Below, in pieces: positions 22,691 through 44,330 of a stretch of 64,000 bases of DNA. This DNA is from Enterococcus phage vB_OCPT_CCS1, in sequence record ON113170.1. One strand, given 5' to 3'. Numbering within the stretch: position 1 is the first letter of the stretch; each line of letters opens with the position of its first letter. The translations under genes were made by a program, and so were the position numbers. Below the pieces are notes generated by a model. It had not been told where the DNA came from and ran no database searches. It saw only the letters and a list, made by a program, of their open reading frames with translations.

Positions 22691-23305
22691 TTATTTTCTT
22701 GTAGAAAATAATTTAATGGGTGTATGTTCTTCTCCTTCAAGATATTTACCATCTTCCCACAAGACCACTGAGCCTTTCTCTAGGCTTCTCTGTACATCAA
22801 TGATACGTTGATTCCATGAACCACGGAAAACAAGGTTAGGGTTGAATTTATCCTGCTCAAAACGCCCATCTACGAGTACATCTACGTAAGATAATAGTTC
22901 AAGCTTATCTTCCCAATTTTCAGCGTTATAATCTGTAAGCTCTTCAAAAGTATAGCCTGACCAAGACCATATTGTTTTACCTGTTAGCTCCGATTTAATA
23001 CGTTTAGCTAAAGGCAGTAGAACTTGTGTATTTAAGAAAGGTTCTCCACCTAACAAAGTAATACCATCACAATAATCTTGTGCAATGTCTTTAAGGATTT
23101 GGTCTTCTACTTCTTGGGTATAGTCTTTTCCCCAACTAAAGTTTTGTGCTTTTTTATTATAACACCCTAAGCAATTAAACGGGCAACCGGAGACGTATAT
23201 ACTTCCACGTACCCCGATACCGTCTACCATTACAGGAAATTTATAATCAGCATATTTACCCTTAGACAGCCTTTCTGCTGTCCATGTCATTGGGTCTTTA
23301 CTCAT
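22691..23305 (-). CDS. nrdG: anaerobic ribonucleotide reductase activating protein (radical SAM)
   Basis: GCPFNCLGCYN is the CxxxCxxC radical-SAM cluster in NrdG context; start moved to MSKDPMTW with RBS AAGAGGGAAA; ORF track gives 22691..23440. Confidence 0.8.
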   Translation of the reverse strand: MSKDPMTWTAERLSKGKYADYKFPVMVDGIGVRGSIYVSGCPFNCLGCYNKKAQNFSWGKDYTQEVEDQILKDIAQDYCDGITLLGGEPFLNTQVLLPLAKRIKSELTGKTIWSWSGYTFEELTDYNAENWEDKLELLSYVDVLVDGRFEQDKFNPNLVFRGSWNQRIIDVQRSLEKGSVVLWEDGKYLEGEEHTPIKLFSTRK

Positions 23306-23591
23306 CTGTATTTCCCTCTTTCTTAACATGTAACCCTTCGTCATAACCTGATTGGGTAAACTTAGCTTGGCAAATTGCACACTTATAGGCTTTATACCCC
23401 AAATTATTATACGGTACCACTTGGTCTTCTCCGTCTTCATCTTGATGGGTACATGTTTTTTGTAATGCTTCTAGTATTTCATTTCTTTGCTTAATTAATT
23501 GTTCTTTCTTCGCAAGATGTCTACGCTCTTCATGTAAAATCGCAGACTCCGCAATAGCTAAAAGATTTTGTAAAGAGGAAGCTGTACTCAT
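23298..23591 (-). CDS. hypothetical protein
   Basis: ORF track 97 aa; CAICQAKF C-terminal motif. Confidence 0.45.
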   Translation of the reverse strand: MSTASSLQNLLAIAESAILHEERRHLAKKEQLIKQRNEILEALQKTCTHQDEDGEDQVVPYNNLGYKAYKCAICQAKFTQSGYDEGLHVKKEGNTDE

Positions 23592-24472
23592 TAGATTGCC
23601 ACCTCGTAATTAAATCTTCCGTTATGTTTGTAGCCTTCAACCTTAAGTTCAGATAGTGGGCACTCAAAGAAGTTAGTCATGCCAGCTTCTTCCCAAGGTA
23701 ATACTAGCTTAGGTTCTGCGTTTAAAACTTCCTCTGTCATAGGAGCAGTTACTTGTTCGACAGCCCGTTCCATATGACGGTCGTAGATATGTGCATTGTC
23801 AATATTCCAGAACATAGTTCCTAGTTCTAAATCAGATACCTTAGCCATAACTACATGTAACGCATGATACTGCAATACATTAAATGGAAGCCCTAAACAA
23901 ACGTCACCGGAACGTTGCTTAACATGTAAATTCAATTTACCACTCTGAACTGTCCAGTGAGTAGCCCATACACAAGGTTCTAGCGCCATCTCGTCTAAGT
24001 CTTCAACATCCCACAAAGTAGTCATAATTCTGCGAGAACTAGGGTTGTGCTTCAACTGGTGAACAACATAGCTAACTTGGTCAAAAATCTGGGAGAACTC
24101 CCCAATAGAAGATGCCGGAACCCATCTTTTTTTATTAGCTAATTGCCAACCATAAGCTTTTCCAATTGTTCCGTCCTCTTGCGCCCACTCGTCCCAAATA
24201 GTAACCCCACGTTCCTGTAACCACTTGACATCGTTAGACATTGCTTGCCAAATCCACTCTAATTCTGTAAATGCCCACTTAGACCCTACAAACTTACTTT
24301 TAAGAATTGGTAGCCCCATGTCTGGTGTAATTTTAAAGCTTACACCCTCAATCGCATAAGCAGGAGCGGGTTCTCCATCTGCATAATGTGCTCGTACCTC
24401 ATCGGGGTTTTGCAAAATACCTTTTTCTTTAATAGCCAACACAAGGTCAGCATAAATTTTATCAAAACTCAT
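23591..24472 (-). CDS. thyA: thymidylate synthase family enzyme (ThyA-like; could alternatively be a dUMP/dCMP hydroxymethylase)
   Basis: 293 aa; active-site-like LEPC and C-terminal ...HVKQRSGDVCLGLPFNV...NIDNAHIYDRH typical of TS/HMase fold. Confidence 0.75.
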   Translation of the reverse strand: MSFDKIYADLVLAIKEKGILQNPDEVRAHYADGEPAPAYAIEGVSFKITPDMGLPILKSKFVGSKWAFTELEWIWQAMSNDVKWLQERGVTIWDEWAQEDGTIGKAYGWQLANKKRWVPASSIGEFSQIFDQVSYVVHQLKHNPSSRRIMTTLWDVEDLDEMALEPCVWATHWTVQSGKLNLHVKQRSGDVCLGLPFNVLQYHALHVVMAKVSDLELGTMFWNIDNAHIYDRHMERAVEQVTAPMTEEVLNAEPKLVLPWEEAGMTNFFECPLSELKVEGYKHNGRFNYEVAI

Positions 24473-25118: not shown

Positions 25119-25937
25119 TTACAAACCTAGCCATGAACGAACTTTGCTGAAAGGAGGTTTCTTTTCAGGCTCCTTGTACTCAGAGTTTGTACGTTTTAAC
25201 TTATCATTGTAGTTATCTGCAAGTGTTAACAATTCATCAGGATTTACTGTTTCACAATAAAAAGCAATCTCTTCCCCAGTTAGCTCTCTATTTTCTTCAA
25301 TCAGCTTATCGAGAGTCAAATCGCAATATTCATCTTCCCAGTCAGCTAAGAAGTACATACGTTCCATGACATAATCTGATGTCTCATCTAGGAATACACC
25401 GAATAGAATTGGGTCTTTATCTCGATTATCTTTTGCTACTTGTTGACCTACTTCATCTGTATAGTCTGTAAACATGACAACTAAGCGGTCAAATTTATCT
25501 TGTACACGTTCAATTACAGGAACAACCTCATCCGGTATTTCACGAGGAAAATCTTTAAGGTCAGCTAGTTTAACTGTGCGATTTTCTACGTTTTCAATAA
25601 AATTCTCAACGTCTTCTGAGTATACAAAGGTTGTAATACCCATATCACGAATTTCTTTTTCTAGTTGAATCGTTCGAATGTGATGACGTAGCAATGATAT
25701 TTGTCGGTCTTGCTTCGTTTTAATTGCTTTCTCTAGCATACGTAGTGCATTTGCGTAATAACGGTCTAGGTCAGCATCTTGGTTTTCTTTTTTACTTTGT
25801 TTCACCCGTTCGAAAAATTCTGTTGGTGAAAGTTCCTCTACTGATTTAGTTGTTAAGTTTTCAGTCATGATATTTCCTCCTAAAAAAATATTCCTTACAG
25901 TAAGTAATATACCATCTGTAAGGAATAAAGTCAACAC
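25119..25937 (-). CDS. hypothetical protein
   Basis: ORF track 272 aa; promoter gtgTTGACTT-N17-TATATT at 25906-25934. Confidence 0.5.
   Translation of the reverse strand: MLTLFLTDGILLTVRNIFLGGNIMTENLTTKSVEELSPTEFFERVKQSKKENQDADLDRYYANALRMLEKAIKTKQDRQISLLRHHIRTIQLEKEIRDMGITTFVYSEDVENFIENVENRTVKLADLKDFPREIPDEVVPVIERVQDKFDRLVVMFTDYTDEVGQQVAKDNRDKDPILFGVFLDETSDYVMERMYFLADWEDEYCDLTLDKLIEENRELTGEEIAFYCETVNPDELLTLADNYNDKLKRTNSEYKEPEKKPPFSKVRSWLGL
25906..25934 (-). promoter_or_regulatory. promoter (gtgTTGACTT-N17-TATATT)
   Basis: upstream of 25119..25937. Confidence 0.5.
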
Positions 25938-25941: not shown

Positions 25942-26409
25942 TTAGAAAATTGTTGTAAACATGTTGCTATGGTCTAGGGCTAATGTTGCATCTCCTGTAA
26001 TTCTACCATCACGATACAAGATAATTGTAGTATCATCAGTAGAAAGGTCTACTTTTGCTTCGTGAGAAGTAGCAACAAACCATACATAATCACTGTCTGT
26101 TTCATCTTTTTTACGTTCAGCATCTTGTTTCATTTGAGCAACGTAAAACTGAGCTACATTATGTCCTGATGGGTCTCTAGAAGGTTCTCCGAAGATGGTT
26201 GATGCACTAATTGATTCTTCTTGACCATCTAAACCAAGCTCCTCTAAAACACTGTGTGCAGTCATTTCAGGTGTATCCGTAGCTCCCAAGAAAGCATTAG
26301 GTATTTCGTATACCCCTTCTTGAACTCGGTGTAGCAACACCATACCTCCTGTTTCGGGACGGTATCTTAATGGTAATAATGTAATGTTAAATCCTACTTT
26401 TTCAATCAT
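25942..26409 (-). CDS. Nudix-like hydrolase (degenerate Nudix box)
   Basis: GATDTPEMTAHSVLEELGL resembles Gx5Ex7..EExGU with substitutions; context of NAD-salvage genes. Confidence 0.35.
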   Translation of the reverse strand: MIEKVGFNITLLPLRYRPETGGMVLLHRVQEGVYEIPNAFLGATDTPEMTAHSVLEELGLDGQEESISASTIFGEPSRDPSGHNVAQFYVAQMKQDAERKKDETDSDYVWFVATSHEAKVDLSTDDTTIILYRDGRITGDATLALDHSNMFTTIF

Positions 26410-26423
26410 GTTAATTCCTCCAT

Positions 26424-27161
26424 TTATTCAATAACTTTTTGTTTAGTTAATTTGCCACTTTCATCATACCACGCATAGATTGCTGTGACAACATTTGTTT
26501 GGTATAAAACATCTCGAATTGCAAACCAGTAGTTCCCAGAACCAAAGTCTAACAAGAACCAGAAGAAATTACTTGCGAACCATCCCCACCATGAGAAGTC
26601 AATTCGCATAATCATTAAGAATTGTGATACGATTCCTAGCAAGTAAGCAATAATGTTACCCCAATACATGATGTTACCCATTAGGGAACCATCTGTAGTA
26701 AAACCAATTTTATCTCCGTACATAATTAAAACAATTAAACCTACAATCGTGAATGCTAAAGTAAATACTACCCAAAAAGCGTTCATCTTACCTACTTTAA
26801 TACGCCCATCTTCATCTTGATTAGACTCTTTAGTCCACTCTTTTAACCCAATAATGTGTGTAATACCGTAATAAATACCTGCAAAAGCCAAACCGAAGTT
26901 CCCGAACATAGTATTAATAATAATTTCACCAACGTTAGAACTAATACCTAAGATATTTCCCATTTTAGGATAACGGTCTGCTAAAGATACCACACAAGGT
27001 ACACCTAAACAGTAAGCTGTGATATAGAATAACCAGTTAGTTTTATCTGACCAGTCAGTGACAAACACACCTACAACCAGTCCCAGTACCACCAAAGTAA
27101 TTGCGTACTGTTTGCGCCACTTCCCATTGGCTAGTGAAATATTGTCCATAAATATTTTCAT
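26424..27161 (-). CDS. pnuC: PnuC-like nicotinamide riboside transporter
   Basis: 245 aa; 7-8 hydrophobic helices; Trp-rich loops; sits next to the NadR-like gene. Confidence 0.55.
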   Translation of the reverse strand: MKIFMDNISLANGKWRKQYAITLVVLGLVVGVFVTDWSDKTNWLFYITAYCLGVPCVVSLADRYPKMGNILGISSNVGEIIINTMFGNFGLAFAGIYYGITHIIGLKEWTKESNQDEDGRIKVGKMNAFWVVFTLAFTIVGLIVLIMYGDKIGFTTDGSLMGNIMYWGNIIAYLLGIVSQFLMIMRIDFSWWGWFASNFFWFLLDFGSGNYWFAIRDVLYQTNVVTAIYAWYDESGKLTKQKVIE

Positions 27162-27162
27162 A

Positions 27163-27528
27163 TTATTTCTCCTCCTTTGTTTTTGCCCAAGAAATTATAA
27201 CTACTCTTACCGGTTCCCCATTGATGTAACTATGCGTTTTAGCATTTACTGTAAAACCTCTTTCTGTCAAAACCTCTGACAGAACTTGCTCCTGACTATA
27301 AAACATCTTCCACGCTAACGCATTTTTGTTTGAAGCTAAAATTAATTCTCTACTATGGGGAGCCTGTTCCTTGATTAAACCTAAAATGTAATTAAGCTCT
27401 TTTCTATAGTTTTCTTTCGCATAGAGCTGTCTAGCACTTTCAGCATTAAAGTCTGCCAACTTTCTCTCTTCTACTAGCCCATTTAAAAACTCATCTGCCC
27501 AAGAATATTCTTCTTTTTCACTCATCAT
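27163..27528 (-). CDS. hypothetical protein
   Basis: ORF track 121 aa. Confidence 0.5.
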   Translation of the reverse strand: MMSEKEEYSWADEFLNGLVEERKLADFNAESARQLYAKENYRKELNYILGLIKEQAPHSRELILASNKNALAWKMFYSQEQVLSEVLTERGFTVNAKTHSYINGEPVRVVIISWAKTKEEK

Positions 27529-28652
27529 ATTTCCTCCTTTTTAGTCCAAATTTCGTCAACGTATAATTGCAATGTATCAACTGTAGTTCCTTCTAGGTAC
27601 TTTTCGATAATTTTCTTGCAAAGTTCATAACGAGTTTCATAATCACTCGCAGTTACTTCCACATATGGGATATGATTCTCCGCATATAATTTCTTCAACA
27701 GTTTTTGGAAGTCTTGTCTACGTTTTTCATCACCGATTAAACGCATACCATCGTCTACCCATTTAGTCGAATTATCTAACAAAATAACCAAGTCAAATCG
27801 GTCATTATCAATCTTATCTTGTACAGACGGATGTGGTTTTCCTTCATACGTAATACAAAAAGCTTGTGTGGCTACGTAATCTGTATCAGAAATAGTAAAT
27901 CTGTTAGCATTACGTCTTGCAAATCTAACGTCTTGATAGTGACCATTAGCAATTGCTTGGTAGTCACTATACTGTAACGCACTCTCATCTCCGCCTAATT
28001 CAAGTTCACAGTAGTTACGACCGTATTCCCAAACAGTCGTAGTAGCAAAGTAGTTACCTAGCTTATCTACCATCAAAGTTTTACCACTAGACTCTCCTCC
28101 TGCAATTACAATTGTAGGAGCCAATGCTTCCCGGCTAGCACGAGGTAGATAGTCCCAGTACTTAATAGGGTTGTTACGTACTTTTGTTGCACTAATGTTA
28201 ACATTAGAACGCTCTGGGTCTACTAATATTGTAGGACAGCCAAAGTATTTTTGATAGCCTTCCGCATCCTGTGGTTCACTTGAAAAGAATGTTGCTTCCT
28301 CCCAATCAAAACCTCTTTCAGCCAACACACGATTACCTGTTACAGTCTCTTTCACAAGGTTTGCCCATGCTTCCCACCCATTAGGGTATTCTGGAATGTT
28401 TGATTCATCTACTAATACGGGAATAATGACATCTCGTTGAACTTGGAAAGTCTTTTGAACAATTCGTAGCTTATCTCGTGCCGTTAGTGGACGTTTCATA
28501 TTAGAATCCACGTATAAATGGTCATCTCTACTATCTGAGTGGCTTACTACTACAACAAGAGTCTCTACTTGTGTGCTTGCTTTTTGAATCATATCTACAT
28601 GTCCTTTGTGTAAGGGATAAAATTTCCCAACTACTACTCCGAACTTTTTCAT
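27525..28652 (-). CDS. nadR: NadR-like bifunctional NMN adenylyltransferase / ribosylnicotinamide kinase (no HTH domain)
   Basis: N-terminal GVVVGKFYPLHKGH ((H/T)xGH nucleotidyltransferase motif); C-terminal IAGGESSGKT Walker A typical of the NR kinase domain. Confidence 0.8.
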   Translation of the reverse strand: MKKFGVVVGKFYPLHKGHVDMIQKASTQVETLVVVVSHSDSRDDHLYVDSNMKRPLTARDKLRIVQKTFQVQRDVIIPVLVDESNIPEYPNGWEAWANLVKETVTGNRVLAERGFDWEEATFFSSEPQDAEGYQKYFGCPTILVDPERSNVNISATKVRNNPIKYWDYLPRASREALAPTIVIAGGESSGKTLMVDKLGNYFATTTVWEYGRNYCELELGGDESALQYSDYQAIANGHYQDVRFARRNANRFTISDTDYVATQAFCITYEGKPHPSVQDKIDNDRFDLVILLDNSTKWVDDGMRLIGDEKRRQDFQKLLKKLYAENHIPYVEVTASDYETRYELCKKIIEKYLEGTTVDTLQLYVDEIWTKKEEI

Positions 28653-28690
28653 ACCTTATTCCTCCTTTTAGGTATTTTTTACTATAATTA

Positions 28691-28718
28691 ATTATATCAC
28701 ACTTTATAGTATAGTCAA
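28691..28718 (-). promoter_or_regulatory. promoter (TTGACT-N16-TATAAT)
   Basis: upstream of the NadR-like gene; RBS AAAGGAGGAATAAGG. Confidence 0.55.
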
Positions 28719-28737
28719 CAAGTTTTCATGAAATTTT

Positions 28738-29100
28738 TCAACGATTAAACTGTTTATAAATTTCTCTCCAATTGACTTGTTCAGTAGTATGCCCCTTATC
28801 GTCAATATACACGTCAGCTCCAAGCTTACGGCTGTTATTTCCATATGCTTTCATCAAATCTGGATGATTCTCATTGATGTAGTGGTAATTAATACCACAT
28901 TCTGCCAAAAACCTTTTTGCTTGTTCTAACTCTTCGCCTTCACGACATGTCCATATAAGAATTTGTTTTCCTGACTTGTATAGGCTGTTAATTACTTCTT
29001 TTGCATGTGGTTGTAGCCCTACAATACTTGGAAATTCACTTCTTACAATAGTGTCATCAAAGTCGATAGCTATGTATTTACACTTTGATAAATCTTTCAT
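28738..29100 (-). CDS. HAD-superfamily phosphatase
   Basis: IAIDFDDTIV (DxDxT motif I); promoter gtgTTGACTT-N17-TATACT at 29152-29180. Confidence 0.65.
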   Translation of the reverse strand: MKDLSKCKYIAIDFDDTIVRSEFPSIVGLQPHAKEVINSLYKSGKQILIWTCREGEELEQAKRFLAECGINYHYINENHPDLMKAYGNNSRKLGADVYIDDKGHTTEQVNWREIYKQFNR

Positions 29101-29151
29101 TTGCTTCTCCTTTCAAATAAAAAAGGTATACCCTTCTTTGCTACAAGAAGA

Positions 29152-29180
29152 AGTATACCTTATGAGTATCACTAAGTCAA
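29152..29180 (-). promoter_or_regulatory. promoter (gtgTTGACTT-N17-TATACT)
   Basis: upstream of the HAD phosphatase gene. Confidence 0.55.
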
Positions 29181-29194
29181 CACTATCTTACAAA

Positions 29195-29434
29195 TTATTT
29201 GTAAGAATTTTTTATTTCTTTAATTTTTCCCATTTGTACACCCGTAAAACTAATACCTGTAGACGTTTCTACGTAAGGTAATGAAGTTACGGACTTATTA
29301 ACTAAATAATCTCTGGCTGTTGGGTCTTCATCAATGTTTCGTTCTTCAAAGAGAATTTTCTCCCCTTCAAGCATACGTTTCACGAATGTACACTGACCAC
29401 AACCATTTTTTGAGTAGACTGTTACTTTAGGCAT
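29195..29434 (-). CDS. nrdH: glutaredoxin/NrdH-like redoxin
   Basis: 79 aa; VTVYSKNGCGQC CxxC active site in thioredoxin-fold context. Confidence 0.7.
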   Translation of the reverse strand: MPKVTVYSKNGCGQCTFVKRMLEGEKILFEERNIDEDPTARDYLVNKSVTSLPYVETSTGISFTGVQMGKIKEIKNSYK

Positions 29435-30191
29435 GAGGAGCCTCCTTTTTAAACCATTTAGAGTTTGTAAATGCTAATACATCATTTGCTAGATATAACA
29501 TGTAAGTTAGCATTAGTACATAAACTGCATGTCCATGTAAAGCTGTTTGAATCCATAGAGCTACTGACATTAGTCCTTGGAAAGTCCAGAAGTAATATTG
29601 TGCTCTAAAGCCTTTCACACACAGTACAGCTCCAACTAAACCAATCATTGCACTTGTTGCATCTAAGAAAGCCTGCGGTGAATGTAAAACAACCGTATCT
29701 AATAAATATAAAGCAACCCAGAAAACAACAATAAGACCTAATGTTTTAAGCATGTGTACAGGTTGCATTTTACGAGGTTTCAAACCCTCATTCCATTGTT
29801 TAGAGAAGATGATAGGAATATCTAACAAAACAATATAAGCAGTTTGCATAATAATATCACTGTAATTACCTGTTACAGTTGCTACACCGATTAATAAAAT
29901 AGCAGAAATAAATCCTAAAATACCATTAATTGATTTACCCATTGTAATTGTTACAGTACATGTAAATCCAATAATTCCTGCAATTGTAGCAGTAAACCCG
30001 GTCATTGTTAACCCTTGACCTTGTAGCATAGGTAGAATAATACCGGTAAATACTTGGACTGCCATTCCGACAAACCATAATACACGAGCTGATTTGTTCC
30101 AACCAGTTAAACCATCTTTATAATATTCGTAAGTGAATAATTTTTCAATATTTTCTTTGTTATCTTTCCAAAACTTTTTTAACTTGTCCAT
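29427..30191 (-). CDS. PnuC-like membrane transporter (second copy)
   Basis: 254 aa polytopic membrane protein; similar layout to 26424..27161. Confidence 0.5.
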   Translation of the reverse strand: MDKLKKFWKDNKENIEKLFTYEYYKDGLTGWNKSARVLWFVGMAVQVFTGIILPMLQGQGLTMTGFTATIAGIIGFTCTVTITMGKSINGILGFISAILLIGVATVTGNYSDIIMQTAYIVLLDIPIIFSKQWNEGLKPRKMQPVHMLKTLGLIVVFWVALYLLDTVVLHSPQAFLDATSAMIGLVGAVLCVKGFRAQYYFWTFQGLMSVALWIQTALHGHAVYVLMLTYMLYLANDVLAFTNSKWFKKEAPHA

Positions 30192-30208: not shown

Positions 30209-31030
30209 TTAAATAGCTTTCTCTAGTGTGTATAAGTCTTGATTGTCAGTAAACTTGCTTAATTCATGGAAAGGTAGTTTACCCTCTAATCTATTGTATA
30301 GCTTCAATGCAACTTGTGTAGCGTGGTCTTTACACCAAGGTAAGCCATTTAACTCACATAAACATTTAACCGTATCTACAGTAGATAGTGCCCCGACTTC
30401 ACACAACTTACTCAAAATAATTGTTAACAAGTAAACACGGTCTCCTTTATCATTCACAAAGTCTTTATCTGTTACATCTAAAACAATTTTAGGGAATCCC
30501 ATATCTTTTTGTAACCAATTTTGATAGTTCTCATGATGCCGTTTAAAGTATTCGTATAATTCAGTACCCTCTTCTACTTTCTCAAACTCACGGGCACGTG
30601 CATTGATTCGTTTGATTTCTTCTTCAAAAGAACAATTTAATACAATCATTAAATCGGGAGTTTTTTTAGGTAATGGTTCTAATTCTTTTAACATACGATT
30701 AAGCAATCGGTGATAAACTCCCTGTTCCATTTCTGTGACATGACCCTCTTGTACTAGTTGGTCTAAGAAGATACTGTCTTCAAAAATAGAACGGTCTAAA
30801 ATACCGTTATCTACACTCATAGCTTCTTGAATCATTTCGAAGCGTTTAGACAACATATCTATTTGGAAAAGTAGTCCATACTTTGCTTTATCTTGGTAGA
30901 ACAATTCAAGCATTGGATTTTCCTCTACCGGTTCATAAACTGCTTTTGTATTTAAAAGATTTGCTAATATTTCTGTCATTGATGATTTACCTACACCAAT
31001 AACTCCGGCTAATGTAATTATCATAACCAT
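30209..31030 (-). CDS. deoxynucleoside kinase
   Basis: IITLAGVIGVGKSS P-loop, DRSIFEDSIF (dNK motif), and the ERxxxRxRxxE lid segment ARAREFEKVEE. Confidence 0.75.
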   Translation of the reverse strand: MVMIITLAGVIGVGKSSMTEILANLLNTKAVYEPVEENPMLELFYQDKAKYGLLFQIDMLSKRFEMIQEAMSVDNGILDRSIFEDSIFLDQLVQEGHVTEMEQGVYHRLLNRMLKELEPLPKKTPDLMIVLNCSFEEEIKRINARAREFEKVEEGTELYEYFKRHHENYQNWLQKDMGFPKIVLDVTDKDFVNDKGDRVYLLTIILSKLCEVGALSTVDTVKCLCELNGLPWCKDHATQVALKLYNRLEGKLPFHELSKFTDNQDLYTLEKAI

Positions 31031-31093: not shown

Positions 31094-32094
31094 TTACATA
31101 TGTTTCACACGTGCATCTATTTCTTTTTTACGTCCGTGTGCATTAGGACGAGCTTGTGGTTGACCTATAAAATCAAGAACAAGTTTACGAGTATCTTCCC
31201 AGTTTGTGTTATCAAGACGTAAAAGCGGTATGTTGTTTTCCAAGCAGTAATTTGTCTTTACAGTATCTCGATATACACTATCTCGGTATTCCTCTTCATT
31301 TGAATAAAATATAGAACTAGGGTTACTATGCTGTTTACCATCGTATTCAATTATTGCTAGTACATTCTCATTTTCATCCACTAAGGAAAAATCAAACATT
31401 AAACCTCTAATACCATTTTTAGGGTTAACAATTCTTGGGTATTGATACCTGTAATTGACATTAGCTTCTGTAAGTATACGGTTTACCATAGTCTCTCCGG
31501 AAGACATTCCACAATGAATGCAGTAGCCACCTCTTGTAGAAAAATCATACGGAGAAACTTTTGATATTGAACCGCACTTCGTATGTTCTATTTCTATCGG
31601 CATCTTAGAGCGCTTGTAAGTGCCTAACACAACATACTCCCCATTGTAATCTTCAATAAGCTTGTAAAAGGCTTTTTTAACCCAAGGGGTGTTACTAAAA
31701 CAATTAGGACATTTAGTACCCATAGTTATTGGTAAGTCCGCTCTTGTTGAGTAAACAGTTCCACAAGATATATGTCTAACCGTTATGTCCTCTTTGTTAG
31801 TTTTATACTCACTTAATAACTCATAGTCACTACCCATAATTTCCATAAACTGTTTTCTATAGGATTCTGGGCTTTTTCTTCTTGACGTATCTTTGTAACA
31901 ATGTCTGCAAGTAAAACCATACTTGTAAATGTTGCTTGGTGTTCTCTCAATAATATTGCCACAGCTATGTTCAATACCCACTTTTTCTCTAGTACTAACA
32001 TAGGGTCTTACTATTGAGTACTCACCGTTAGTATTGTTTTCATCAAAATAGTCCAAGAATTTTTGTTTACTTTTCTCAATATTTTTTGTCATGT
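31094..32094 (-). CDS. homing-endonuclease-like protein (Zn-finger repeats + Vsr/DUF559-like nuclease motif) with NrdD-mimicking C-terminal tail
   Basis: three Cys-rich repeats in the N-terminal half; LAIIEYDGKQH matches the (V/I)EYDG..H nuclease motif; last 23 aa near-identical to the NrdD C-terminus; start moved to MTKNIEK with RBS AGGAGG. Confidence 0.55.
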
Positions 32095-32149
32095 TCACAA
32101 CCTCCTGTACATAAATAATATAGCACAAGACGTTGTGAACCGACAGCGA

Positions 32150-34321
32150 CTACATATGTTTTGCTCTGTGGTCGATTTCTACTTTTCTTCCGTGTGGCAT
32201 AGGTCTAGCTTGTGGATTTCCGAGATAGCCACATGTTCGTTTAACGACATCGCATGTTGCGGGGTCATTATTCCCACATTGTGGACATTCGTAGCCATCT
32301 GATGTGGGGTTAAACTCTCCGTCAAAACCACATTCATGACATTTATCAATTGGAGTGTTTGTTCCTAAGTAACCAACTTTATCATAGCTGTAGTCCCAAA
32401 CAGCTTCTAACGCCTTAAGGTTATGAACTAGTTTAGGATACTCTACATAGTGAATAAAACCACCAGAAGCATATTTTGGAAACTCTTTCTCAAAGTCAAT
32501 CTTTTCAAAAGGTGTTGGAGCTTTACGAACATCATAGTGGAAACTATTTGTATAGTATTCTTTGTCTGTAATGTTCTCGATGATTCCATATTTTTCTGTG
32601 TCCATACGACAGAATCTATCGGTTAGACTTTCACTTGGTGTTGAGTAGATAGAGAACCAGATGCCTGTCTCTTTTGTCCATTCATCCTTTTTATCATAAA
32701 GCTTACGTAGAACGTCTAAAGCAAACTCTTTTGCTTCTTCATGTCTTGGGTCTGTTTTATCTTGCCAGTCACCACCATAGAACATGCTAGCAACCTCGTA
32801 CAGCCCGATATAGCCCATAGAAACCGTTGCACGGTTATTTATGAACAATTGTTTTACATCGTCATCATCGGTTAAATTAGCCCCAAAAGCACCATGTTTG
32901 TACAAGATAGGAGCATTCTTTGGTTGAGCTTCGTAAGTACGTTCAATTCGATAAACCAAAGCATCATGTAATACCTTAGCTCGTTCTTCAAAAATTTCCC
33001 AGAAGACTTCTTTATCCCCTTCTGATTCAATAGCAATACGTGGTAAGTTAAGGGTTACTACTCCTAAATTCATACGACCAGAGTTTACTTCGTTTCCATG
33101 TTCATCTTTCCATCCTTGTAAGAATGAACGACAACCCATAGGACATTTAAATGAACCTGTTAGCTCAACAATTTTGTCATAGTTCAAAATATCAGGGTAC
33201 ATACGTTTAGCTGAACATTCTAATGCTAACTGTTTTACTTCATAGTTAGGGTCTTCTGGTTTACGGTTAACTCCGTCTTTAATAGTGAATAATAATTTAG
33301 GGAAGATTGCTGTACGTCCTTCTGTTCCTAGACCTTGGATACGTACTTTAAAAATAGCTTTTTGGATTTCTCTTTCCCAACGACCTGTACCTAAACCAAA
33401 GCCAATAGAGGTGAAAGGAGTTTGACCATTCGATGTAAATAACGTATTGATTTCATACTCTAGGCTTTGCATTGCATCGTAAATATCTTTGTTTGTTTTC
33501 TCGATTGCATATGTTTCTGGTTCAGGAATACGGTAACGTTTAGCATCCGCCATATGTTTTTGGTAATTCATTTCAGCATAAGGGGCTAATACTTCATCAA
33601 TGCGGTCAAACGAACAACCACCATATTGACTGGAAGCCACATTCGCAATAATTTGTGCTGTTTGTGCTGTAGCTGTTTGAATGGAATGAGGTGAACCAAT
33701 TTCTGCATTACCCATTTTAAACCCGTTCTTCAACATATATTCAAAGTCAATCAAACAACAATTAGTCATTGGACGGTAAGGTTGGTAGTCTAAATCGTGA
33801 TAATGAATATCTCCACGTAAATGTGCGTTAGCTACATGAGGAGGGAGCATTTTAAGACCCTCAACTTTGTTAACTGTACCTGCTGTAAGGTCTCGTTCTG
33901 TTGCAAAGGTATTTGAGTCCTTATTTGCATTCTCATTGACAATAGTTTTGTCCTTTTCTTGTAGCTTACGTAATCTTACATTAATATCTGTATCACCTGC
34001 ACGTTCAGCATCACGTAAAGAACGAAACTCAATATAGTTTCTAGCTACGTTTTTAGCAAAAGATTTCATTAATTCCTGCTCTACAATACTTTGGAGTTTT
34101 GCAATATCGACACGTCCTGTATCGCTGTAATGCTTCACTACAAAGCGTTTAACACGTTCAGCTATAATCTCTCCTAAATCTGTTTTAGCGCCCGTAGCAT
34201 CCTTCTCAGCTCGTCCTACGGCACGTACAATCCTTCCTTCATTAAACTTGACAGTTCTTCCATCTCGTTTAACTACAAAAATCTGTTTTGTCTTAACATC
34301 TACATCTTGTGTTTCTTGCAC
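32150..34321 (-). CDS. nrdD: anaerobic ribonucleoside-triphosphate reductase (class III)
   Basis: 723 aa; N-terminal ATP-cone (VVKRDGRTVKFNEGRI); C-terminal CxxC...CxxC zinc site and glycyl-radical motif RTCGYLG. Confidence 0.9.
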   Translation of the reverse strand: MQETQDVDVKTKQIFVVKRDGRTVKFNEGRIVRAVGRAEKDATGAKTDLGEIIAERVKRFVVKHYSDTGRVDIAKLQSIVEQELMKSFAKNVARNYIEFRSLRDAERAGDTDINVRLRKLQEKDKTIVNENANKDSNTFATERDLTAGTVNKVEGLKMLPPHVANAHLRGDIHYHDLDYQPYRPMTNCCLIDFEYMLKNGFKMGNAEIGSPHSIQTATAQTAQIIANVASSQYGGCSFDRIDEVLAPYAEMNYQKHMADAKRYRIPEPETYAIEKTNKDIYDAMQSLEYEINTLFTSNGQTPFTSIGFGLGTGRWEREIQKAIFKVRIQGLGTEGRTAIFPKLLFTIKDGVNRKPEDPNYEVKQLALECSAKRMYPDILNYDKIVELTGSFKCPMGCRSFLQGWKDEHGNEVNSGRMNLGVVTLNLPRIAIESEGDKEVFWEIFEERAKVLHDALVYRIERTYEAQPKNAPILYKHGAFGANLTDDDDVKQLFINNRATVSMGYIGLYEVASMFYGGDWQDKTDPRHEEAKEFALDVLRKLYDKKDEWTKETGIWFSIYSTPSESLTDRFCRMDTEKYGIIENITDKEYYTNSFHYDVRKAPTPFEKIDFEKEFPKYASGGFIHYVEYPKLVHNLKALEAVWDYSYDKVGYLGTNTPIDKCHECGFDGEFNPTSDGYECPQCGNNDPATCDVVKRTCGYLGNPQARPMPHGRKVEIDHRAKHM

Positions 34322-34471
34322 TCAAAGTTCCACCTTTCTTACAATATCTAGTATACTTAGTATAGCATAACAATACTTACAGTGCAAGATGTAATTGTTA
34401 ACAAAAAATAAAAGACTACAAACTAAGTTGTAGTCTTTTTCAACAAATATTACAAATTGATTAATTTTTTC

Positions 34472-39091: not shown

Positions 39092-39162
39092 TATGGATTG
39101 CAGGATTTGAACCCGCACCTTTTTGACGGAAGCCAAAAATACTACCCTTATATTAAATCCAC
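39092..39162 (-). tRNA. tRNA-Gly(UCC)
   Basis: T arm GCGGG-TTCAAAT-CCTGC; acceptor 6/7 + G-U; anticodon loop CTTCCGT; AT-rich D arm. Confidence 0.5.
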
Positions 39163-39282
39163 ATAGTGTTAATAGGCGGGTACCCGACAGCGAAGTATCA
39201 TTCCTGTCTTGTCATTCTCCTATTAACTCCATAATACCTTGCCTAGAGTTGAGCTAGGTCTCACATTTATCGAAGGTACTAA

Positions 39283-39355
39283 TCGGGAAAGCAGGACTTG
39301 AACCTGCGACCCCACGCTCCCAAAGCGTGTGCGCTACCAACTGCGCTATTTCCCG
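39283..39355 (-). tRNA. tRNA-Pro(UGG)
   Basis: acceptor CGGGAAA/TTTCCCG exact; D arm GCGCAGTTGGTAGCGC; anticodon stem CACGC/GCGTG with loop TTTGGGA; T arm GCAGG-TTCAAGT-CCTGC. Confidence 0.8.
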
Positions 39356-39432
39356 TTAACTTATACATACATTATAACACAAACTTACATGCTGTAAACA
39401 ACTATTTGTAAGTTTTTTTAATTTATCCATTC

Positions 39433-39510
39433 GGGACAGTGTGCTTTAACCATTCAGCCACCCGCAGGGGCAACCCGCAGGACGGGAATCGAACCCGTAT
39501 AACACTGTCC
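39433..39510 (-). ncRNA. tRNA-mimic module 3, closed by a 9-bp stem at the anticodon-stem position: YrlA-like Y-RNA candidate
   Basis: GGACAGTGT-tat-ACGGG-TTCGATT-CCCGT (T arm)-CCTGCGGG-ttgcc-CCTGCGGG (8-bp self-complementary hairpin with two G-U)-tg-GCTGAATGGTTAAAGC (D arm)-ACACTGTCC; the terminal 9-bp stem GGACAGTGT/ACACTGTCC encloses the whole unit. Confidence 0.55.
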
Positions 39511-39675
39511 TATTGGATAGGCTTGTGTACCTGTCATCTTCCGATTACACACACCTAGTCTAGTTACCGTACCAATAGATTTGACAGGAATCTAGGGTAA
39601 CGCCCAATATGGTGTTAATTCACCTCGTATTCTGTTACAGGTTTGCAACCCTGAACAAGGATGACCAATCCTAAT

Positions 39676-39743
39676 GATATGCGAGGGGATTTGAACCCCT
39701 ATCTACTTCATAGGTCACTTTATCCACTTAAGCTACGCATACC
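39676..39743 (-). tRNA. irregular tRNA-like element (short; possible pseudogene)
   Basis: canonical T arm AGGGG-TTCAAAT-CCCCT and 7-bp acceptor (one G-U); only ~16 nt between D arm and T arm, so no standard anticodon arm fits. Confidence 0.3.
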
Positions 39744-39799
39744 TATTTAATTTCTAGCTAGGTAACTAAATTCACTGCACCTTGCGCAGAGTACAGCTA

Positions 39800-39872
39800 T
39801 GGAGCATAGCGGACTTGAACCGCTGACATCTACCTTGCAAGGGTAGCGCTCTCCCAACTGAGCTAATGCCCC
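39800..39872 (-). tRNA. tRNA-Ala(UGC)
   Basis: acceptor GGGGCAU with G3:U70 wobble (Ala identity); D arm GCTCAGTTGGGAGAGC; anticodon loop CTTGCAA; T arm AGCGG-TTCAAGT-CCGCT. Confidence 0.85.
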
Positions 39873-39877
39873 GAAAA

Positions 39878-39950
39878 CACCTCCGCTGAGATTTGAACTC
39901 AGAATGCGGGATTAGAAATCCTGTGGTTTATCCAATTAGCCTACGGAGAT
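39878..39950 (-). tRNA. tRNA-Arg(UCU)
   Basis: T arm CTGAG-TTCAAAT-CTCAG; anticodon stem CAGGA/TCCCG with loop TTTCTAA; acceptor 7 bp with one G-U. Confidence 0.7.
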
Positions 39951-39954
39951 ATAC

Positions 39955-40119
39955 TTACTTAAACGGAAGATAAATTGTTTGACCAATTCTAATTTTATTA
40001 GGGTCTTTAATATTCCTATTCTGACCATGTAACCAAATTAGTCTCCATAACCAAGGCTTGCCATAATATTTTCTAGCAATAGAATACAATGTGTCACCTT
40101 TTTTAACTGTGTATTTCAT
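39955..40119 (-). CDS. small LysM-domain protein (54 aa)
   Basis: MKYTVKKGDTLYSIARKYYG...IGQTIYLP is a LysM consensus; RBS AGGGGG; below ORF-track cutoff. Confidence 0.45.
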   Translation of the reverse strand: MKYTVKKGDTLYSIARKYYGKPWLWRLIWLHGQNRNIKDPNKIRIGQTIYLPFK

Positions 40120-40148
40120 AACAATTACCCCCTAATTTATAAATATGG

Positions 40149-40517
40149 CTATATATAGGATACTCCTGTAAACAATTCAATTGCTTCAATTTCAGTATGG
40201 AAGTTTTCCCATTCTAAACATTCATAGAAATCTTGTAAGATATGCTTGTCTTTCCTGTAAACAGTCTCACCTTTATGGGCTTTCTCACAGATTTCTCTAA
40301 CAGCATCCACATTATATTTACCACCAGTTTTATACTGTTCTAAACCAGAATCTAGTAAAACTCGTTGTACTTCTTCACTCTTATCTCCTGCTTTCCAAGA
40401 GTCAAAAGCTTTATCATACAATGTATCTTCCATGTTTTCACCTTCTACTTCCATGATTGATTGAATAAATCTTTGCCACTTAGAAGGCTCTTTGTGTTTA
40501 CCTTTACGAAAACTCAT
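40149..40517 (-). CDS. hypothetical protein
   Basis: ORF track 122 aa; RBS GGAGG upstream. Confidence 0.5.
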   Translation of the reverse strand: MSFRKGKHKEPSKWQRFIQSIMEVEGENMEDTLYDKAFDSWKAGDKSEEVQRVLLDSGLEQYKTGGKYNVDAVREICEKAHKGETVYRKDKHILQDFYECLEWENFHTEIEAIELFTGVSYI

Positions 40518-40543
40518 TATTAGCCTCCATTATCTTTAATGAA

Positions 40544-40630
40544 CCGAGGAGGAGGGACTCGAACCCCCAAACGCTTTTACACGTCTACATGATTTCAAAT
40601 CACGCTGAATACCAGTTATGATACTCCCCG
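40544..40630 (-). tRNA. tRNA-Ser(UGA), type II
   Basis: 87 nt; acceptor CGGGGAG pairs CTCCTCG with G-U; anticodon loop TTTGAAA; long variable arm; T arm GGGGG-TTCGAGT-CCCTC. Confidence 0.65.
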
Positions 40631-40741
40631 AAAAAGAAACTGATTGACTAGTACTGTTAGTTGACTAGTCAACCGGAACTACTTAAACCGAACTCTTTAA
40701 ACAGCTTTAGTAGTTATTATTTAGGTTTTTAAATAAACAAC

Positions 40742-41002
40742 TTACCAAAACCAAACTAGATTTAATGCTAGTCGTTTACTAATAATAGGTGATTTTCTAT
40801 GTCTAACCGATTTAAACTTACGTACATTCCCCTTATATGGTGTAAAGTCAATCTTACAAGGTTCAACATAATTAAATTTACGGTTAGCTCGTTTAATTAC
40901 TGCTTGCTTTTGTTTAGAAGCTTTAATTTCTTTTTCAAATGCTTCTTTTTCAATGTTGTTAGCTATGGTTGCTAAATGTTCAGTCATAAAGCTCATGTCC
41001 AT
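40742..41002 (-). CDS. hypothetical basic protein
   Basis: ORF track 86 aa between two tRNA-Ser genes; RBS AGGAGAGATG. Confidence 0.4.
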   Translation of the reverse strand: MDMSFMTEHLATIANNIEKEAFEKEIKASKQKQAVIKRANRKFNYVEPCKIDFTPYKGNVRKFKSVRHRKSPIISKRLALNLVWFW

Positions 41003-41019
41003 CTCTCCTTACACGTTCT

Positions 41020-41106
41020 ATGGAAGGCATGGGATTCGAACCCACACATGCTGTTACACATCTACTTGGTTTCCAACCAAGCCTCTTTACCGTTTGAGTA
41101 ACCTTC
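41020..41106 (-). tRNA. tRNA-Ser(GGA), type II
   Basis: 87 nt; acceptor GGAAGGT/GCCTTCC; D stem CTC/GAG 3 bp; anticodon stem CTTGG/CCAAG with loop TTGGAAA; long variable arm; T arm GTGGG-TTCGAAT-CCCAT. Confidence 0.75.
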
Positions 41107-41202
41107 CGTCTTGGGAGCAGGCGGGTTTGTGTCAAGTACACAATACCTAATCTTCTGTGCATGTTGTTCCCTAGGCTTTATGCACACCCTACTATCTGCA
41201 TA

Positions 41203-41388
41203 CTAACAGACCTGCCAATTTTCTAACACTTTTTCTAATGCTTCGTATGGACACATTACTGTCTTACCGTGAACACCATGTATTCTCAAAATAATATAAT
41301 GTTCATTTATCTCAGAGGTAACAAAGTATATCTTGTCTTTCACTAAACCTAAACTTCCGTTTAAACCAATGAATTTTAAATACATCAT
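41203..41388 (-). CDS. hypothetical protein
   Basis: ORF track 61 aa; RBS AAGGAGGT. Confidence 0.4.
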   Translation of the reverse strand: MMYLKFIGLNGSLGLVKDKIYFVTSEINEHYIILRIHGVHGKTVMCPYEALEKVLENWQVC

Positions 41389-42132
41389 GTTACCTCCTTA
41401 TTATGTATAACCCATGAAGCATCATGGGGGGACTGTAGTATGCCCAACCTGCGGGGATGCTCCGCTCTGAATCCGTAGAAATCAGCCACAATTCGATATT
41501 TATTTAATGAAAAAATTAGATAGGATTCGACTGCTTGACAAAGGCAGTCTATGGAGTAGACGGGACTCGAACCCGTGTCCTAACGTAGAACCATACAAAA
41601 TTCTACGGGCGTAGTTACTAGTTTTAATCTACGTTAAGGTTACAACTAATAACTGAAATTACCTTAACTGAGTGGTAAAGCCTCTCCTGAGTTATCCACT
41701 TTTACCTCAGCGTTGTCGGTTGATGAGTCCTCTAGGTAGAACCGACCCTAGTCTAGAGGGGTAAGTGTGTAGCTAGTCTAAAACTAGGCTACAGCTAATA
41801 ATTCTTCGTTTTTAGCAGTTATATTTACTGCGATGATTAAGTCATCACTCTGCCCGCTATTCATATACTCCTTACGCCAGTCGAAACCAAAACTACCCCA
41901 ACATAAGAATTTCTTTTGACTAACCCTACCCTTCCGGCAGGGTCTAATCAAAAGTATACAATTAAAAAAATGAAAATGAGTTACGGAAAATGTAACGTCT
42001 CCACCACCGGACTATAAGGGTAAGTTGTTCCGGTCTTTAACCTAAGTACTTTACTTAAATCTAACAGGACAGCCTTCATTACGTAAACTACTTAACCATG
42101 TAAAACGTAAAGGTCAATTTCCGTTGACCTAA

Positions 42133-42206
42133 TGCAAGAGGGGGGATTCGAACCCCCACTGAATAGATTCTAAGTCTACTTCCTCTGCCAGTTGGGATAC
42201 TCTCGC
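42133..42206 (-). tRNA. tRNA with anticodon UAG (Leu by anticodon; short variable arm, atypical D arm)
   Basis: perfect T arm GGGGG-TTCGAAT-CCCCC; acceptor 7 bp with one G-U; anticodon hairpin GTAGA-CTTAGAA-TCTAT. Confidence 0.5.
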
Positions 42207-42291
42207 ATAATAACAGCCCTACCCAACCGCTGTTCTGCTAGCATATAGCTTGCAGGCTTTTTATCTGTGTTATAAAAACCAGAAAGGCTAT

Positions 42292-42375
42292 ACGGGTAAC
42301 AGGAGTCGAACCTGCATGTCACAAGGGACAATGGATTTTAAGTCCACAGCGTATACCAGTTCCGCCATACCCGCA
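42292..42375 (-). tRNA. tRNA-Leu(UAA), type II
   Basis: 84 nt; acceptor GCGGGTA/TACCCGT (G-U); anticodon loop CTTAAAA; variable hairpin TGTC-ACAAGG-GACA; T arm GCAGG-TTCGACT-CCTGT. Confidence 0.75.
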
Positions 42376-42552
42376 TAATCACTTTTTAAACTAGATTATT
42401 TATGATTTCCCACTTCTGAAAAAAATACCACTTTATATATCAACATTTTTCTTATGAATGGGTTAAGATATGTTTTAACGAAAAAGAGGCTAAAAGAGTA
42501 TTTCCTCAAAATTTTTTGTCAAGTTAATCTAGTAAGGAAAAGTGTAACCTTA

Positions 42553-42624
42553 TGTGACTGCTCAGAATCGAACTGAGATTCATGTTTCCACAGAACACTG
42601 CCTTACCGTTAGGCTACAGTCACC
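42553..42624 (-). tRNA. tRNA-His(GUG)
   Basis: acceptor GTGACTG/CAGTCAC exact with an extra encoded 5' G (G-1, His hallmark); anticodon loop CTGTGGA; T arm CTCAG-TTCGATT-CTGAG. Confidence 0.8.
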
Positions 42625-42647
42625 ATCATGTGTTCCTTACAAGAATT

Positions 42648-42676
42648 ACTATACAGCATCTTGTAAGGAAAGTCAA
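42648..42676 (-). promoter_or_regulatory. promoter (gtgTTGACTT-N17-TATAGT) preceding tRNA-His
   Basis: motif match; drives the tRNA sub-cluster. Confidence 0.5.
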
Positions 42677-42695
42677 CACTTAAATGTAATTTTAT

Positions 42696-42917
42696 TTAAA
42701 AAAGTTTTGATGAATCTAATTGAGAGAAACTTTCAGGTAGAGAACCTAGTTCTTCCATATACTCTTGGTCAATCTCATAAACAGATAACTCGGTTACTTC
42801 GTTTTCAATAGTAAGTTTCATTGCTTCTGCTGTTTGTATACTGTGTCCTTCTATTTGAAGTTTATCATCAAGATAAATACCTTCCCAGTCTTCTGCAACT
42901 ACATAGTCTGCTTTCAA
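42696..42917 (-). CDS. hypothetical acidic protein
   Basis: ORF track 73 aa. Confidence 0.4.
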   Translation of the reverse strand: MKADYVVAEDWEGIYLDDKLQIEGHSIQTAEAMKLTIENEVTELSVYEIDQEYMEELGSLPESFSQLDSSKLF

Positions 42918-42925
42918 GATATTAC

Positions 42926-43177
42926 CTACTTTCTTCTCAATTTCTGATAAAAATTATTATTCTTGTAATCATCCTCGTGGGCATAGAATTTTTTCATGTC
43001 ATATGTCCAACAAGTTTCTTCTACTCGTTTATGATGTGTCAATGTTACTTCGTCATCAAAACAACCTTGATTTAATTTATGCCTGTAATTTCTATTAACC
43101 ATTCTTTTTATATCTCGAACAGTTGAATCTTTCATACAAACATAACGGTAATAGGGTTTTCTGTAACTTCTACTCAT
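42926..43177 (-). CDS. hypothetical basic protein
   Basis: ORF track 83 aa; RBS AGGAGGACTTAC. Confidence 0.4.
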   Translation of the reverse strand: MSRSYRKPYYRYVCMKDSTVRDIKRMVNRNYRHKLNQGCFDDEVTLTHHKRVEETCWTYDMKKFYAHEDDYKNNNFYQKLRRK

Positions 43178-43331
43178 TGTAAGTCCTCCTTAATAGATAC
43201 TTACAATTTAGACAATACTTTCTTCACAGGAACCACTCCTTATTAATAAAAGCTACCTCCCGAAAAACGTTTCTTCACCAAAGTGTAAGACGTAAACTAA
43301 CGACAGGTCATAGTTTTCCAATTAAGGCAAA

Positions 43332-43854: not shown

Positions 43855-43861
43855 ATGTTAA

Positions 43862-44241: not shown

Positions 44242-44243
44242 GA

Positions 44244-44317: not shown

Positions 44318-44330
44318 TAAGATTACCAAT

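Follow-up and report, generated by a model that had tools for sequence, protein, structure and literature searches.

Does the gene cluster at positions 25942-30191 of Enterococcus phage vB_OCPT_CCS1 (record ON113170.1) encode a single pathway for the salvage of nicotinamide riboside (NR), or do its genes belong to separate pathways? Within the 64,000-nt stretch of this phage analysed here (the window), a sequence-only reading had placed two PnuC-like transporters, a NadR-like enzyme, a Nudix-like protein and a HAD phosphatase in this interval, and proposed that all five cooperate to rebuild nicotinamide adenine dinucleotide (NAD+) during infection. The gene assignments were borne out by the open reading frames (ORFs) and by profile and fold matches with E-values far below chance level, although there are seven ORFs rather than five, all on the minus strand and with the interval limits falling at true ORF boundaries. 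Instead of one island, we consider it likely that the region comprises two separate salvage modules, each pairing a facilitator with a trapping kinase. As Pnu transporters are facilitators whose trapping step depends on a co-localised kinase (PMC5749112, PMC7221760), two parallel modules, PnuC-1 with NadR and PnuC-2 with a deoxynucleoside kinase (dNK), represent the simplest reading. Enterococcus phage Porthos (Herelleviridae, Schiekvirus) shares the region in full at 99.6 % identity. Its DNA is matched by 32 Enterococcus phage records, whose existing annotations name NadR-like, PnuC-like, Nudix, HAD and NrdH genes.

A NadR-like enzyme and its predicted partner transporter

The first proposed module would consist of the NadR-like gene, the PnuC-1 gene and a promoter of their own:

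27525-28652 (-), NadR-like protein, 375 aa; NF005988 450 bits, TIGR01526 354 bits, PF13521 E=2.3e-30
26424-27161 (-), PnuC-1, 245 aa; PF04973 E=2.4e-12, 47.6 bits; phrog_1880 E=1.8e-39
28691-28718 (-), promoter-like site directly upstream of NadR, matching the sigma-A/sigma-70 consensus

Judged by its sequence, the NadR-like protein is a full-length, bifunctional nicotinamide mononucleotide (NMN) adenylyltransferase (NMNAT) and nicotinamide-riboside kinase (RNK) without a helix-turn-helix (HTH) domain. Its TIGR01526 score exceeds the cutoff of 341, and its first residue already aligns at position 63 of the NF005988 model, with the match running to position 408, so that the HTH domain is absent. 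It aligns end to end with the NadR proteins of Haemophilus influenzae (PDB 1lw7; E=1e-105, 47 % identity), Escherichia coli (8x7f; E=1.6e-99) and Lactococcus lactis (6gye), as well as with Bas30_86 (9x6f; E=1.1e-56, 37 % identity), the enzyme of the phage system NARP3. The HxGH motif (GKFYPLHKGH) and Walker A motif (GGESSGKT) noticed in the sequence-only reading, which had also remarked on the missing HTH domain, are present, as are ISATKVR (ISxTxxR), Walker B DTD and the lid WVDDGMR. That reading had named catalytically dead NMNAT or RNK motifs as grounds for abandoning its proposal; all canonical motifs are intact in alignments with 1lw7, 8x7f and 9x6f. The profile searches it had suggested as a check likewise agree, with PF04973 matching both transporters and PF13521 matching the NadR-like protein. 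Moreover, the residues K10, F11, S37, E80, P84, G89, F110, S112, V139, I141 and D275, which are sensitive to mutation in Bas30_86, are all kept. Bas30_86 D115 is replaced by Q and E230 by V; H. influenzae NadR has Q at the first of these positions and I at the second. Nothing in these alignments suggests a dead enzyme.

Phage pairs of this type have been described before. Osterman et al. 2024 (bioRxiv 10.1101/2024.02.11.579819) observed that phage NadR usually lies beside PnuC, and proposed a possible further NAD+ reconstitution pathway. Subsequently, Yan et al. (Sci Adv, 12 Aug 2026; PMC13464706) gave the name NARP3 to the NadR-like Bas30_86 and PnuC-like Bas30_87 of Escherichia phage TrudiRoth (Bas30): Bas30_87 binds and imports NR, Bas30_86 converts NR to NAD+, and together they bring NAD+ back and protect phages against Sir2-HerA and DSR1 in E. 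coli, with a 10^3- to 10^4-fold rescue. The 124 NARP3 operons reported there are largely restricted to Enterobacteriaceae phages, and Enterococcus is unmentioned. Using tblastn against the phage collection, we found NadR homologs in 746 phage records, including those of Vibrio, Bacillus, Lactobacillus and 26 of Enterococcus. NadR homologs occur in 305 Vibrio phage records, including ICP1, and in ICP1 isolate records a weak PnuC-like match lies ∼170 bp from the position of the NadR match; on this basis NARP3-like modules seem far commoner than the 124 published operons. All homologs from non-Enterococcus phages are below 60 % identity (∼36 % for the closest among the matches listed), and the NadR of this phage is 37 % identical to Bas30_86 versus 47 % to H. 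influenzae NadR. Both comparisons point to an independent acquisition of the Enterococcus lineage. As such, the NR-to-NAD+ core is of an already known kind, proposed in 2024 and shown in 2026, whilst the Enterococcus version appears to be new and independently acquired.

PnuC-1 is predicted to be the NR importer that partners NadR. Both Pnu proteins pass the PF04973 gathering cutoff of 27.3 bits, PnuC-1 with 47.6 bits and PnuC-2 with 81.6 bits. The Pnu ligand motif WxxW(x)3D/N, which sits in transmembrane helix 6 (PMC5749112), is intact in PnuC-1 as WWGWFASN in a MAFFT alignment with 4QTN and a T5-like NARP3-type PnuC, and the same alignment shows that it retains counterparts of Q171, Y217 and N220. 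NR is coordinated in Bas30_87 by N45, Q94 and N180, and alanine mutants of Q94 and N180 lose NR binding (PMC13464706); in an alignment of ∼20 % identity, PnuC-1 keeps N180, probably keeps N45 (GN) and has His for Q94. Homologs of PnuC-1 are rare, and in all three of the other phage-like contigs found they lie downstream of a NadR homolog (56-64 % identity). NadR and PnuC-1 were each matched by 26 Enterococcus phage records, and no other gene separates the two in EFDG1 or in contigs L010 and L012. In this phage PnuC-1 is likewise downstream of NadR, behind one promoter-like site. In contigs L010 (4069-6768) and L012 (4012-7819) a canonical PF00293 NUDIX gene lies beside the pair, and in L012 a nucleoside deoxyribosyltransferase-family gene flanks it as well.

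From homology, motifs, gene linkage, co-occurrence and consensus transcription signals we infer the substrates, and with them NAD+ restoration and an anti-defence role, as follows. NR would diffuse in through PnuC-1, the RNK domain of NadR would phosphorylate it to NMN and thereby trap it, and the NMNAT domain would adenylate NMN to NAD+. The infected cell could in this manner keep or regain its NAD+ pool, even once NADase defences of the host (SIR2, TIR or Thoeris-type) have fired. Such a module would be the Gram-positive-phage counterpart of NARP3. The host genus does possess a defence of this sort, since a type I Thoeris SIR2 NADase is found in Enterococcus faecium. The earlier proposal that PnuC and NadR rebuild NAD+ thus holds for the core of NadR and PnuC-1, given its motifs, its linkage and the Bas30 precedent, but not for the Nudix-like protein, HAD and PnuC-2 as contributors. 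Similarly, the view that the locus is a variant of NAD+ reconstitution using NR agrees with the NARP3 route, whilst its novelty has been overtaken by the 2024 proposal and the 2026 demonstration.

A second Pnu clade beside a deoxynucleoside kinase

The other proposed module begins outside the interval considered in the sequence-only reading and would end at a terminator:

30209-31030 (-), dNK, PF01712 E=2.1e-37; first in transcription order and outside the earlier interval
29427-30191 (-), PnuC-2, 254 aa; PF04973 E=8.9e-23, 81.6 bits; TIGR01528 72.0 bits
29195-29434 (-), NrdH-like glutaredoxin, PF00462 E=1.6e-12, TIGR02194 59 bits; overlaps the 3' end of PnuC-2 and was unlisted in the earlier reading
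29115-29160 (-), terminator-like hairpin and U-run after NrdH; fold -19.1 kcal/mol, z=-3.2

PnuC-1 and PnuC-2 belong to different Pnu clades and show no significant pairwise similarity. PnuC-2 matches 4QTN directly (E=6.5e-8), whereas phmmer found no match between PnuC-1 and 4QTN. The scores against TIGR01528, the equivalog model for PnuC NR transporters, run opposite to the motif and gene-linkage evidence for the two proteins. In PnuC-2 the ligand motif is altered to YYFWTFQG (W to Y and N to G, giving YxxWxxxG), and so departs from WxxW(x)3D/N. Furthermore, Q99 is replaced by D and Q171 by A, and the changes are invariant in 12 clade members, as are Y199, W202, Q205 and G206 of the motif. 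Relative to Bas30_87, PnuC-2 keeps N45 but has D for Q94 and G for N180, again at ∼20 % alignment identity.

Homologs of PnuC-2 were identified in 120 phage records (51 of Enterococcus, 41 of Lactobacillus, plus Weissella and others) and also in Lactobacillales chromosomes. Outside Schiekvirus, none had a NadR gene within 4 kb. A dNK beside or near the PnuC-2 homolog recurs in a ∼70 kb PolA phage lineage (L007-L009; order Pnu-HNH-dNK-ThyA), in VPE25 (nucleoside deoxyribosyltransferase (NDT)-deoxyguanosine kinase (dGK)-Pnu) and in a ∼80 kb phage lineage (L076/L077). In phages 113, 163 and EFP01, NadR and PnuC-1 are absent and dNK-PnuC-2-NrdH is kept. The dNK is annotated as a deoxyadenosine/deoxyguanosine kinase in relatives, and several GenBank records call PnuC-2 an 'NrdR-regulated deoxyribonucleotide transporter, PnuC-like'. 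Because NR-binding residues are lost and the dNK adjacency recurs in unrelated phages, PnuC-2 probably brings in (deoxy)nucleosides for the dNK encoded upstream of it, and NR specificity is doubtful. The neighbours of the bacterial homologs, which are only QueT (queuosine-precursor transporter family), Tad2-like and short-chain dehydrogenase genes, are uninformative on substrate. For instance, in Companilactobacillus and Lactobacillus chromosomes (L005 6832-7541 and L006 6701-7557) the PnuC-2 homolog is followed by QueT and a Tad2-like gene (PF11195).

The block is flanked by NrdD (32150-34321) on one side and by ThyA/NrdG (22691-24472) on the other, and so lies inside a nucleotide-metabolism region. 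In this setting the second module would most likely import and phosphorylate (deoxy)nucleosides for DNA synthesis, with dNK as the presumed trapping enzyme.

Transcription signals and the remaining genes

The other features of the region are:

28738-29100 (-), HAD phosphatase, 120 aa; BT0820 family, PDB 2obb E=2.5e-15
27163-27528 (-), ORF121, 121 aa; orphan between NadR and PnuC-1, unlisted in the earlier reading
25942-26409 (-), Nudix-like protein, 155 aa; predicted stand-alone NrtR-type Nudix domain without a winged HTH (wHTH) domain
25890-25927 (-), hairpin after the Nudix-like gene, possible terminator; fold -17.3 kcal/mol, z=-4.6

The promoter-like site upstream of NadR reads TTGACT-16-TGtGATATAAT, matching 11 of 12 consensus positions with an extended -10 TG, and is the best in the 7.3 kb scanned. 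On its upstream side, the hairpin after NrdH, which is followed by UUUUUUAUUU, divides dNK-PnuC-2-NrdH from the HAD and NadR genes. The hairpin after the Nudix-like gene has a weak U tail and possibly closes a unit running from NadR to Nudix. In the annotation of phage 113, terminators are placed at positions equivalent to both hairpins. These predicted signals agree with a split into two modules.

Nothing informative was returned for the Nudix-like protein or ORF121 by direct Pfam, NCBIfam and PHROG searches. Only an exhaustive phmmer search recovered relatives of the Nudix-like protein, 14 in number, with true NUDIX proteins at the tail. AlphaFold2 (AF2) gave a predicted local distance difference test score (pLDDT) of 30 with a 5-sequence alignment, and a pLDDT of 82.5 with a predicted template modelling score (pTM) of 0.80 with a 14-sequence alignment that included the distant relatives. 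Using the AF2 model, Foldseek returned 2FML as the top match (TMq 0.81, E=1.3e-10) among 138 PDB matches at E<=1e-3, and nearly all of the best 50 of the 138 have the Nudix fold. The family profile also matches 2FML across the whole phage protein (E=3.7e-21). This structure is that of EF2700 from Enterococcus faecalis, a regulator of the NrtR family in which the Nudix domain serves as the ADP-ribose (ADPR) effector domain. In common with EF2700, the phage protein has the family-specific C-terminal hairpin and FDH motif, and a perturbed signature as in most NrtRs. It differs in being phage-encoded, in lacking the wHTH and the N-terminal swapped arm, and in a strongly conserved YRDGRxTGD hairpin that EF2700 does not have. 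No wHTH was found in the protein, which ends at about residue 191 of the 273 of EF2700, and none is supplied by a downstream ORF. Compared with the signature GX5EX7REUXEEXGU, its Nudix box (GATDTPEMTAHSVLEELGL) has lost the RE pair, and the EE pair and G are unconserved across the family. By its modelled fold, then, the Nudix-like protein is a stand-alone NrtR-type (EF2700-like) ADPR-sensor domain with a degenerate catalytic signature, and probably acts as a binder rather than a hydrolase. Its presence in 30 Enterococcus phage records, with or without NadR, makes it core to Schiekvirus. One of the PF00293 NUDIX genes of L010 and L012 matches it with a pairwise E=8e-6.

HAD carries motifs I-IV (DFDDT, WT, K and DD), is small and cap-less, and scores 90.9 bits against NF046079, under the cutoff of 165; its sequence points to a small BT0820-like phosphatase. 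It is present in the NadR-less phage 113 and absent from EFP01. We considered whether it could be an NMN/NAD nucleotidase like H. influenzae e(P4) and rejected this, as no N-terminal signal sequence was seen by eye and no co-variation with NadR was found. ORF121 has no Pfam, PHROG or NCBIfam match and shows no similarity to the 114-aa ORF at the same position in contig L011. EFDG1-type phages do not carry it and have NadR directly next to PnuC-1; phages 113, 163 and EFP01 carry it but have neither of those two genes. It is probably a passenger gene outside the pathway. Since none of the three co-varies with NadR, the Nudix-like protein, HAD and ORF121 would, judging by co-occurrence, not be required for the NadR-PnuC-1 module. 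In EFDG1 (L004 5904-7186, corresponding to ∼28653-28737 of the window) an extra 245-aa transmembrane protein and a LemA-family gene, both missing here, lie between NadR and HAD, and this gap is a hot spot for accessory genes.

Comparison with known systems

The NadR-PnuC-1 module shares with NARP3 a phage-encoded pair of HTH-less NadR and Pnu-family transporter within one transcription unit, conserved NadR catalytic motifs and most mutation-sensitive residues, and a predicted chemistry running from NR import through NMN to NAD+. It differs in its Gram-positive host and Herelleviridae myovirus background (NARP3 being mostly of Enterobacteriaceae phages), in a PnuC-1 from a very divergent Pnu clade with His at the essential Q94, and in the orphan ORF between the two genes in this phage. 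Facilitated diffusion followed by metabolic trapping, the same NadR domains and the Pnu fold also link it to the bacterial PnuC/NadR systems of H. influenzae, Salmonella and E. coli (4QTN, 1LW7, 8X7F). The phage version, however, lacks the HTH repressor domain, has a strong, constitutive-looking promoter, and uses a transporter far from the characterised NR-specific PnuCs.

For PnuC-2, the closest parallel is PnuN, a Pnu subgroup of Lactobacillus that is predicted to transport deoxynucleosides (Rodionov and Gelfand 2005, as cited in PMC7749635). PnuC-2 comes from the same Lactobacillales sphere and lies beside dNK (NDT and dGK in VPE25), as with Lactobacillus-type deoxynucleoside salvage enzymes. 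In contrast to PnuN, with its predicted NrdR regulon, no NrdR box was found in the phage or upstream of the closest bacterial homologs, and PnuC-2 is at most a candidate member of PnuN. With NARP2 and the NadV/NatV system of KVP40 (Nampt plus NMNAT-Nudix) the locus shares a phage NAD+ salvage route ending in NMNAT with a Nudix-family domain nearby. Here, however, the precursor would be NR and not nicotinamide, and the Nudix domain is a separate, probably non-catalytic protein; no Nampt was identified in the interval 25942-30191.

Weighing the explanations

Several observations weigh against two modules with these substrates. PnuC-1 scores only 26.1 bits against TIGR01528, under its cutoff of 42.45 bits, and has a clade-conserved His in place of the Bas30_87 residue Q94 (4QTN Q99), which is essential; the mapping of binding residues comes from a MAFFT alignment with ∼20 % identity to 4QTN. 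Conversely, PnuC-2 passes the same model with 72.0 bits and could still carry NR. Most of its phage homologs are solitary, the bacterial ones are named NR transporters by NCBI, and dNK, NadR or nrd genes are absent within 5 kb in 50 of the 51 bacterial loci. No riboswitch was detected at the bacterial homologs at gathering or E<=1 thresholds. NrdR boxes of at least 13/16 were absent upstream of 23 bacterial homologs and across the whole window, a weak test given the consensus used (after Rodionov and Gelfand 2005); the window contained only 12/16 matches, at background frequency. One of these, a weak NrdR-box-like palindrome (TTACAATATCTAGTAT; 12/16 to the consensus), lies at 34339-34354, just upstream of the nrdD start. 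In addition, the promoter and terminators are consensus and fold predictions, and an anti-defence role is inseparable here from general NAD+ supply.

This last point bears on the chief competitor, a general metabolic booster in which the phage uses NadR and PnuC-1 to boost or recycle NAD+ for its own replication in niacin-dependent enterococci, immunity aside; NMN freed by the NAD+-dependent host DNA ligase could, for example, be re-adenylated. The module sits amid the nucleotide-metabolism auxiliary genes NrdD, NrdG, ThyA, dNK and NrdH, the NadR and PnuC-1 families are both filed as auxiliary metabolic genes in PHROGs, the phage NadR homologs span many hosts, jumbo-phage surveys read such genes as an independent NAD+ supply, and the NMNAT domain of NadR can take NMN from any source (PMC7221760). 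Yet the two-gene module tested in E. coli gave its 10^3- to 10^4-fold rescue specifically under NADase defences, and in the sister phages 113, 163 and EFP01 the module is dispensable, as is typical of accessory counter-defence genes. We therefore regard the booster as possible but somewhat unlikely, bearing in mind that booster and counter-defence roles are not mutually exclusive.

A different assignment would make PnuC-2, or both Pnu proteins, the true NR transporter, with PnuC-1 handling another vitamin-like substrate or acting as a regulator or partner of NadR. PnuC-2 does pass TIGR01528 and match 4QTN, and PnuC-1 does neither; nevertheless, it is PnuC-1 that keeps WxxW(x)3N and Q171 and is strictly NadR-linked, whilst PnuC-2 is never NadR-linked outside Schiekvirus, leaving this assignment unlikely. 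The original picture of one cooperating five-gene NAD+ island, with two redundant NR transporters, NadR, Nudix and HAD, did not survive the comparison and appears highly improbable. The genes are indeed contiguous and co-oriented, two other contigs have canonical NUDIX genes close to pairs of the NadR-PnuC-1 type, NARP2 and KVP40 NatV join NMNAT with a Nudix domain, and the Nudix-like protein shares homology with a sensor domain of the NAD pathway. Against this, a predicted terminator and separate promoter divide the region, and PnuC-2 is of another clade, has lost NR-binding residues and is tied to dNK elsewhere. The Nudix signature is degenerate, a cytosolic NMN phosphatase would work against the RNK step, and the Nudix-like protein, HAD and PnuC-2 persist without NadR (EFP01 also lacking HAD).

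Returning to the two-module reading, a more elaborate form of it, which we think quite improbable, is that the region combines three devices that protect or sense nucleotide pools: a NARP3-like module; a PnuC-2-dNK 'dNTP reconstitution' module that could circumvent defences which deplete dNTPs, besides feeding replication; and a captured, catalytically dead NrtR/EF2700 domain. The last of these could be a sponge for ADPR or for the cyclic ADPR (cADPR) isomers of Thoeris, or a dominant-negative partner that de-represses host NAD salvage. To our knowledge, neither a 'dNTP reconstitution' module nor a phage-captured NrtR/EF2700 effector domain has a described precedent.

Other features of the window

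Between dNK and NrdD, at 31094-32128 (-), lies a 344-aa endonuclease-like ORF that Porthos lacks and that the annotation of phage 113 describes as a VSR-type endonuclease. Over its final ∼23 residues (GQPQARPNAHGRKKEIDARVKHM) it repeats the C-terminus of NrdD (GNPQARPMPHGRKVEIDHRAKHM). A homing endonuclease appears to have inserted here and taken a copy of the 3' end of nrdD; nrdD is in two pieces in some relatives. ThyA (23591-24472, -) has 293 aa versus 319 aa in Porthos. We rejected a truncation, as the difference is explained by a ∼26-aa shorter, divergent internal segment and the gene is intact; it represents a mosaic allele and not a pseudogene. Elsewhere, an array of 24 tRNA genes (39092-48418, -) contains a tmRNA (RF00023, 142.7 bits) at 41549-41899 (-), and a full-length ROOL RNA (RF03087, 267.8 bits) lies within the phage tRNA region at 47309-47895 (-). 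The Porthos annotation lists tRNAs, but no tmRNA or ROOL.

Implications for Enterococcus phages

Should the two-module reading be correct, NARP3 counter-defence would extend past Enterobacteriaceae phages to therapeutic-type Enterococcus myoviruses (Schiekvirus, for example iF6, EFDG1 and Porthos). Naturally occurring sister phages with and without NadR offer a ready comparison of host range among E. faecium and E. faecalis strains that carry NADase defences. The stand-alone NrtR-type domain is, in turn, a candidate ADP-ribose-binding phage protein. Finally, the locus cautions that not every phage 'PnuC' is an NR/NMN transporter: a second Pnu clade, widespread in Lactobacillales phages, more likely serves deoxynucleoside salvage.

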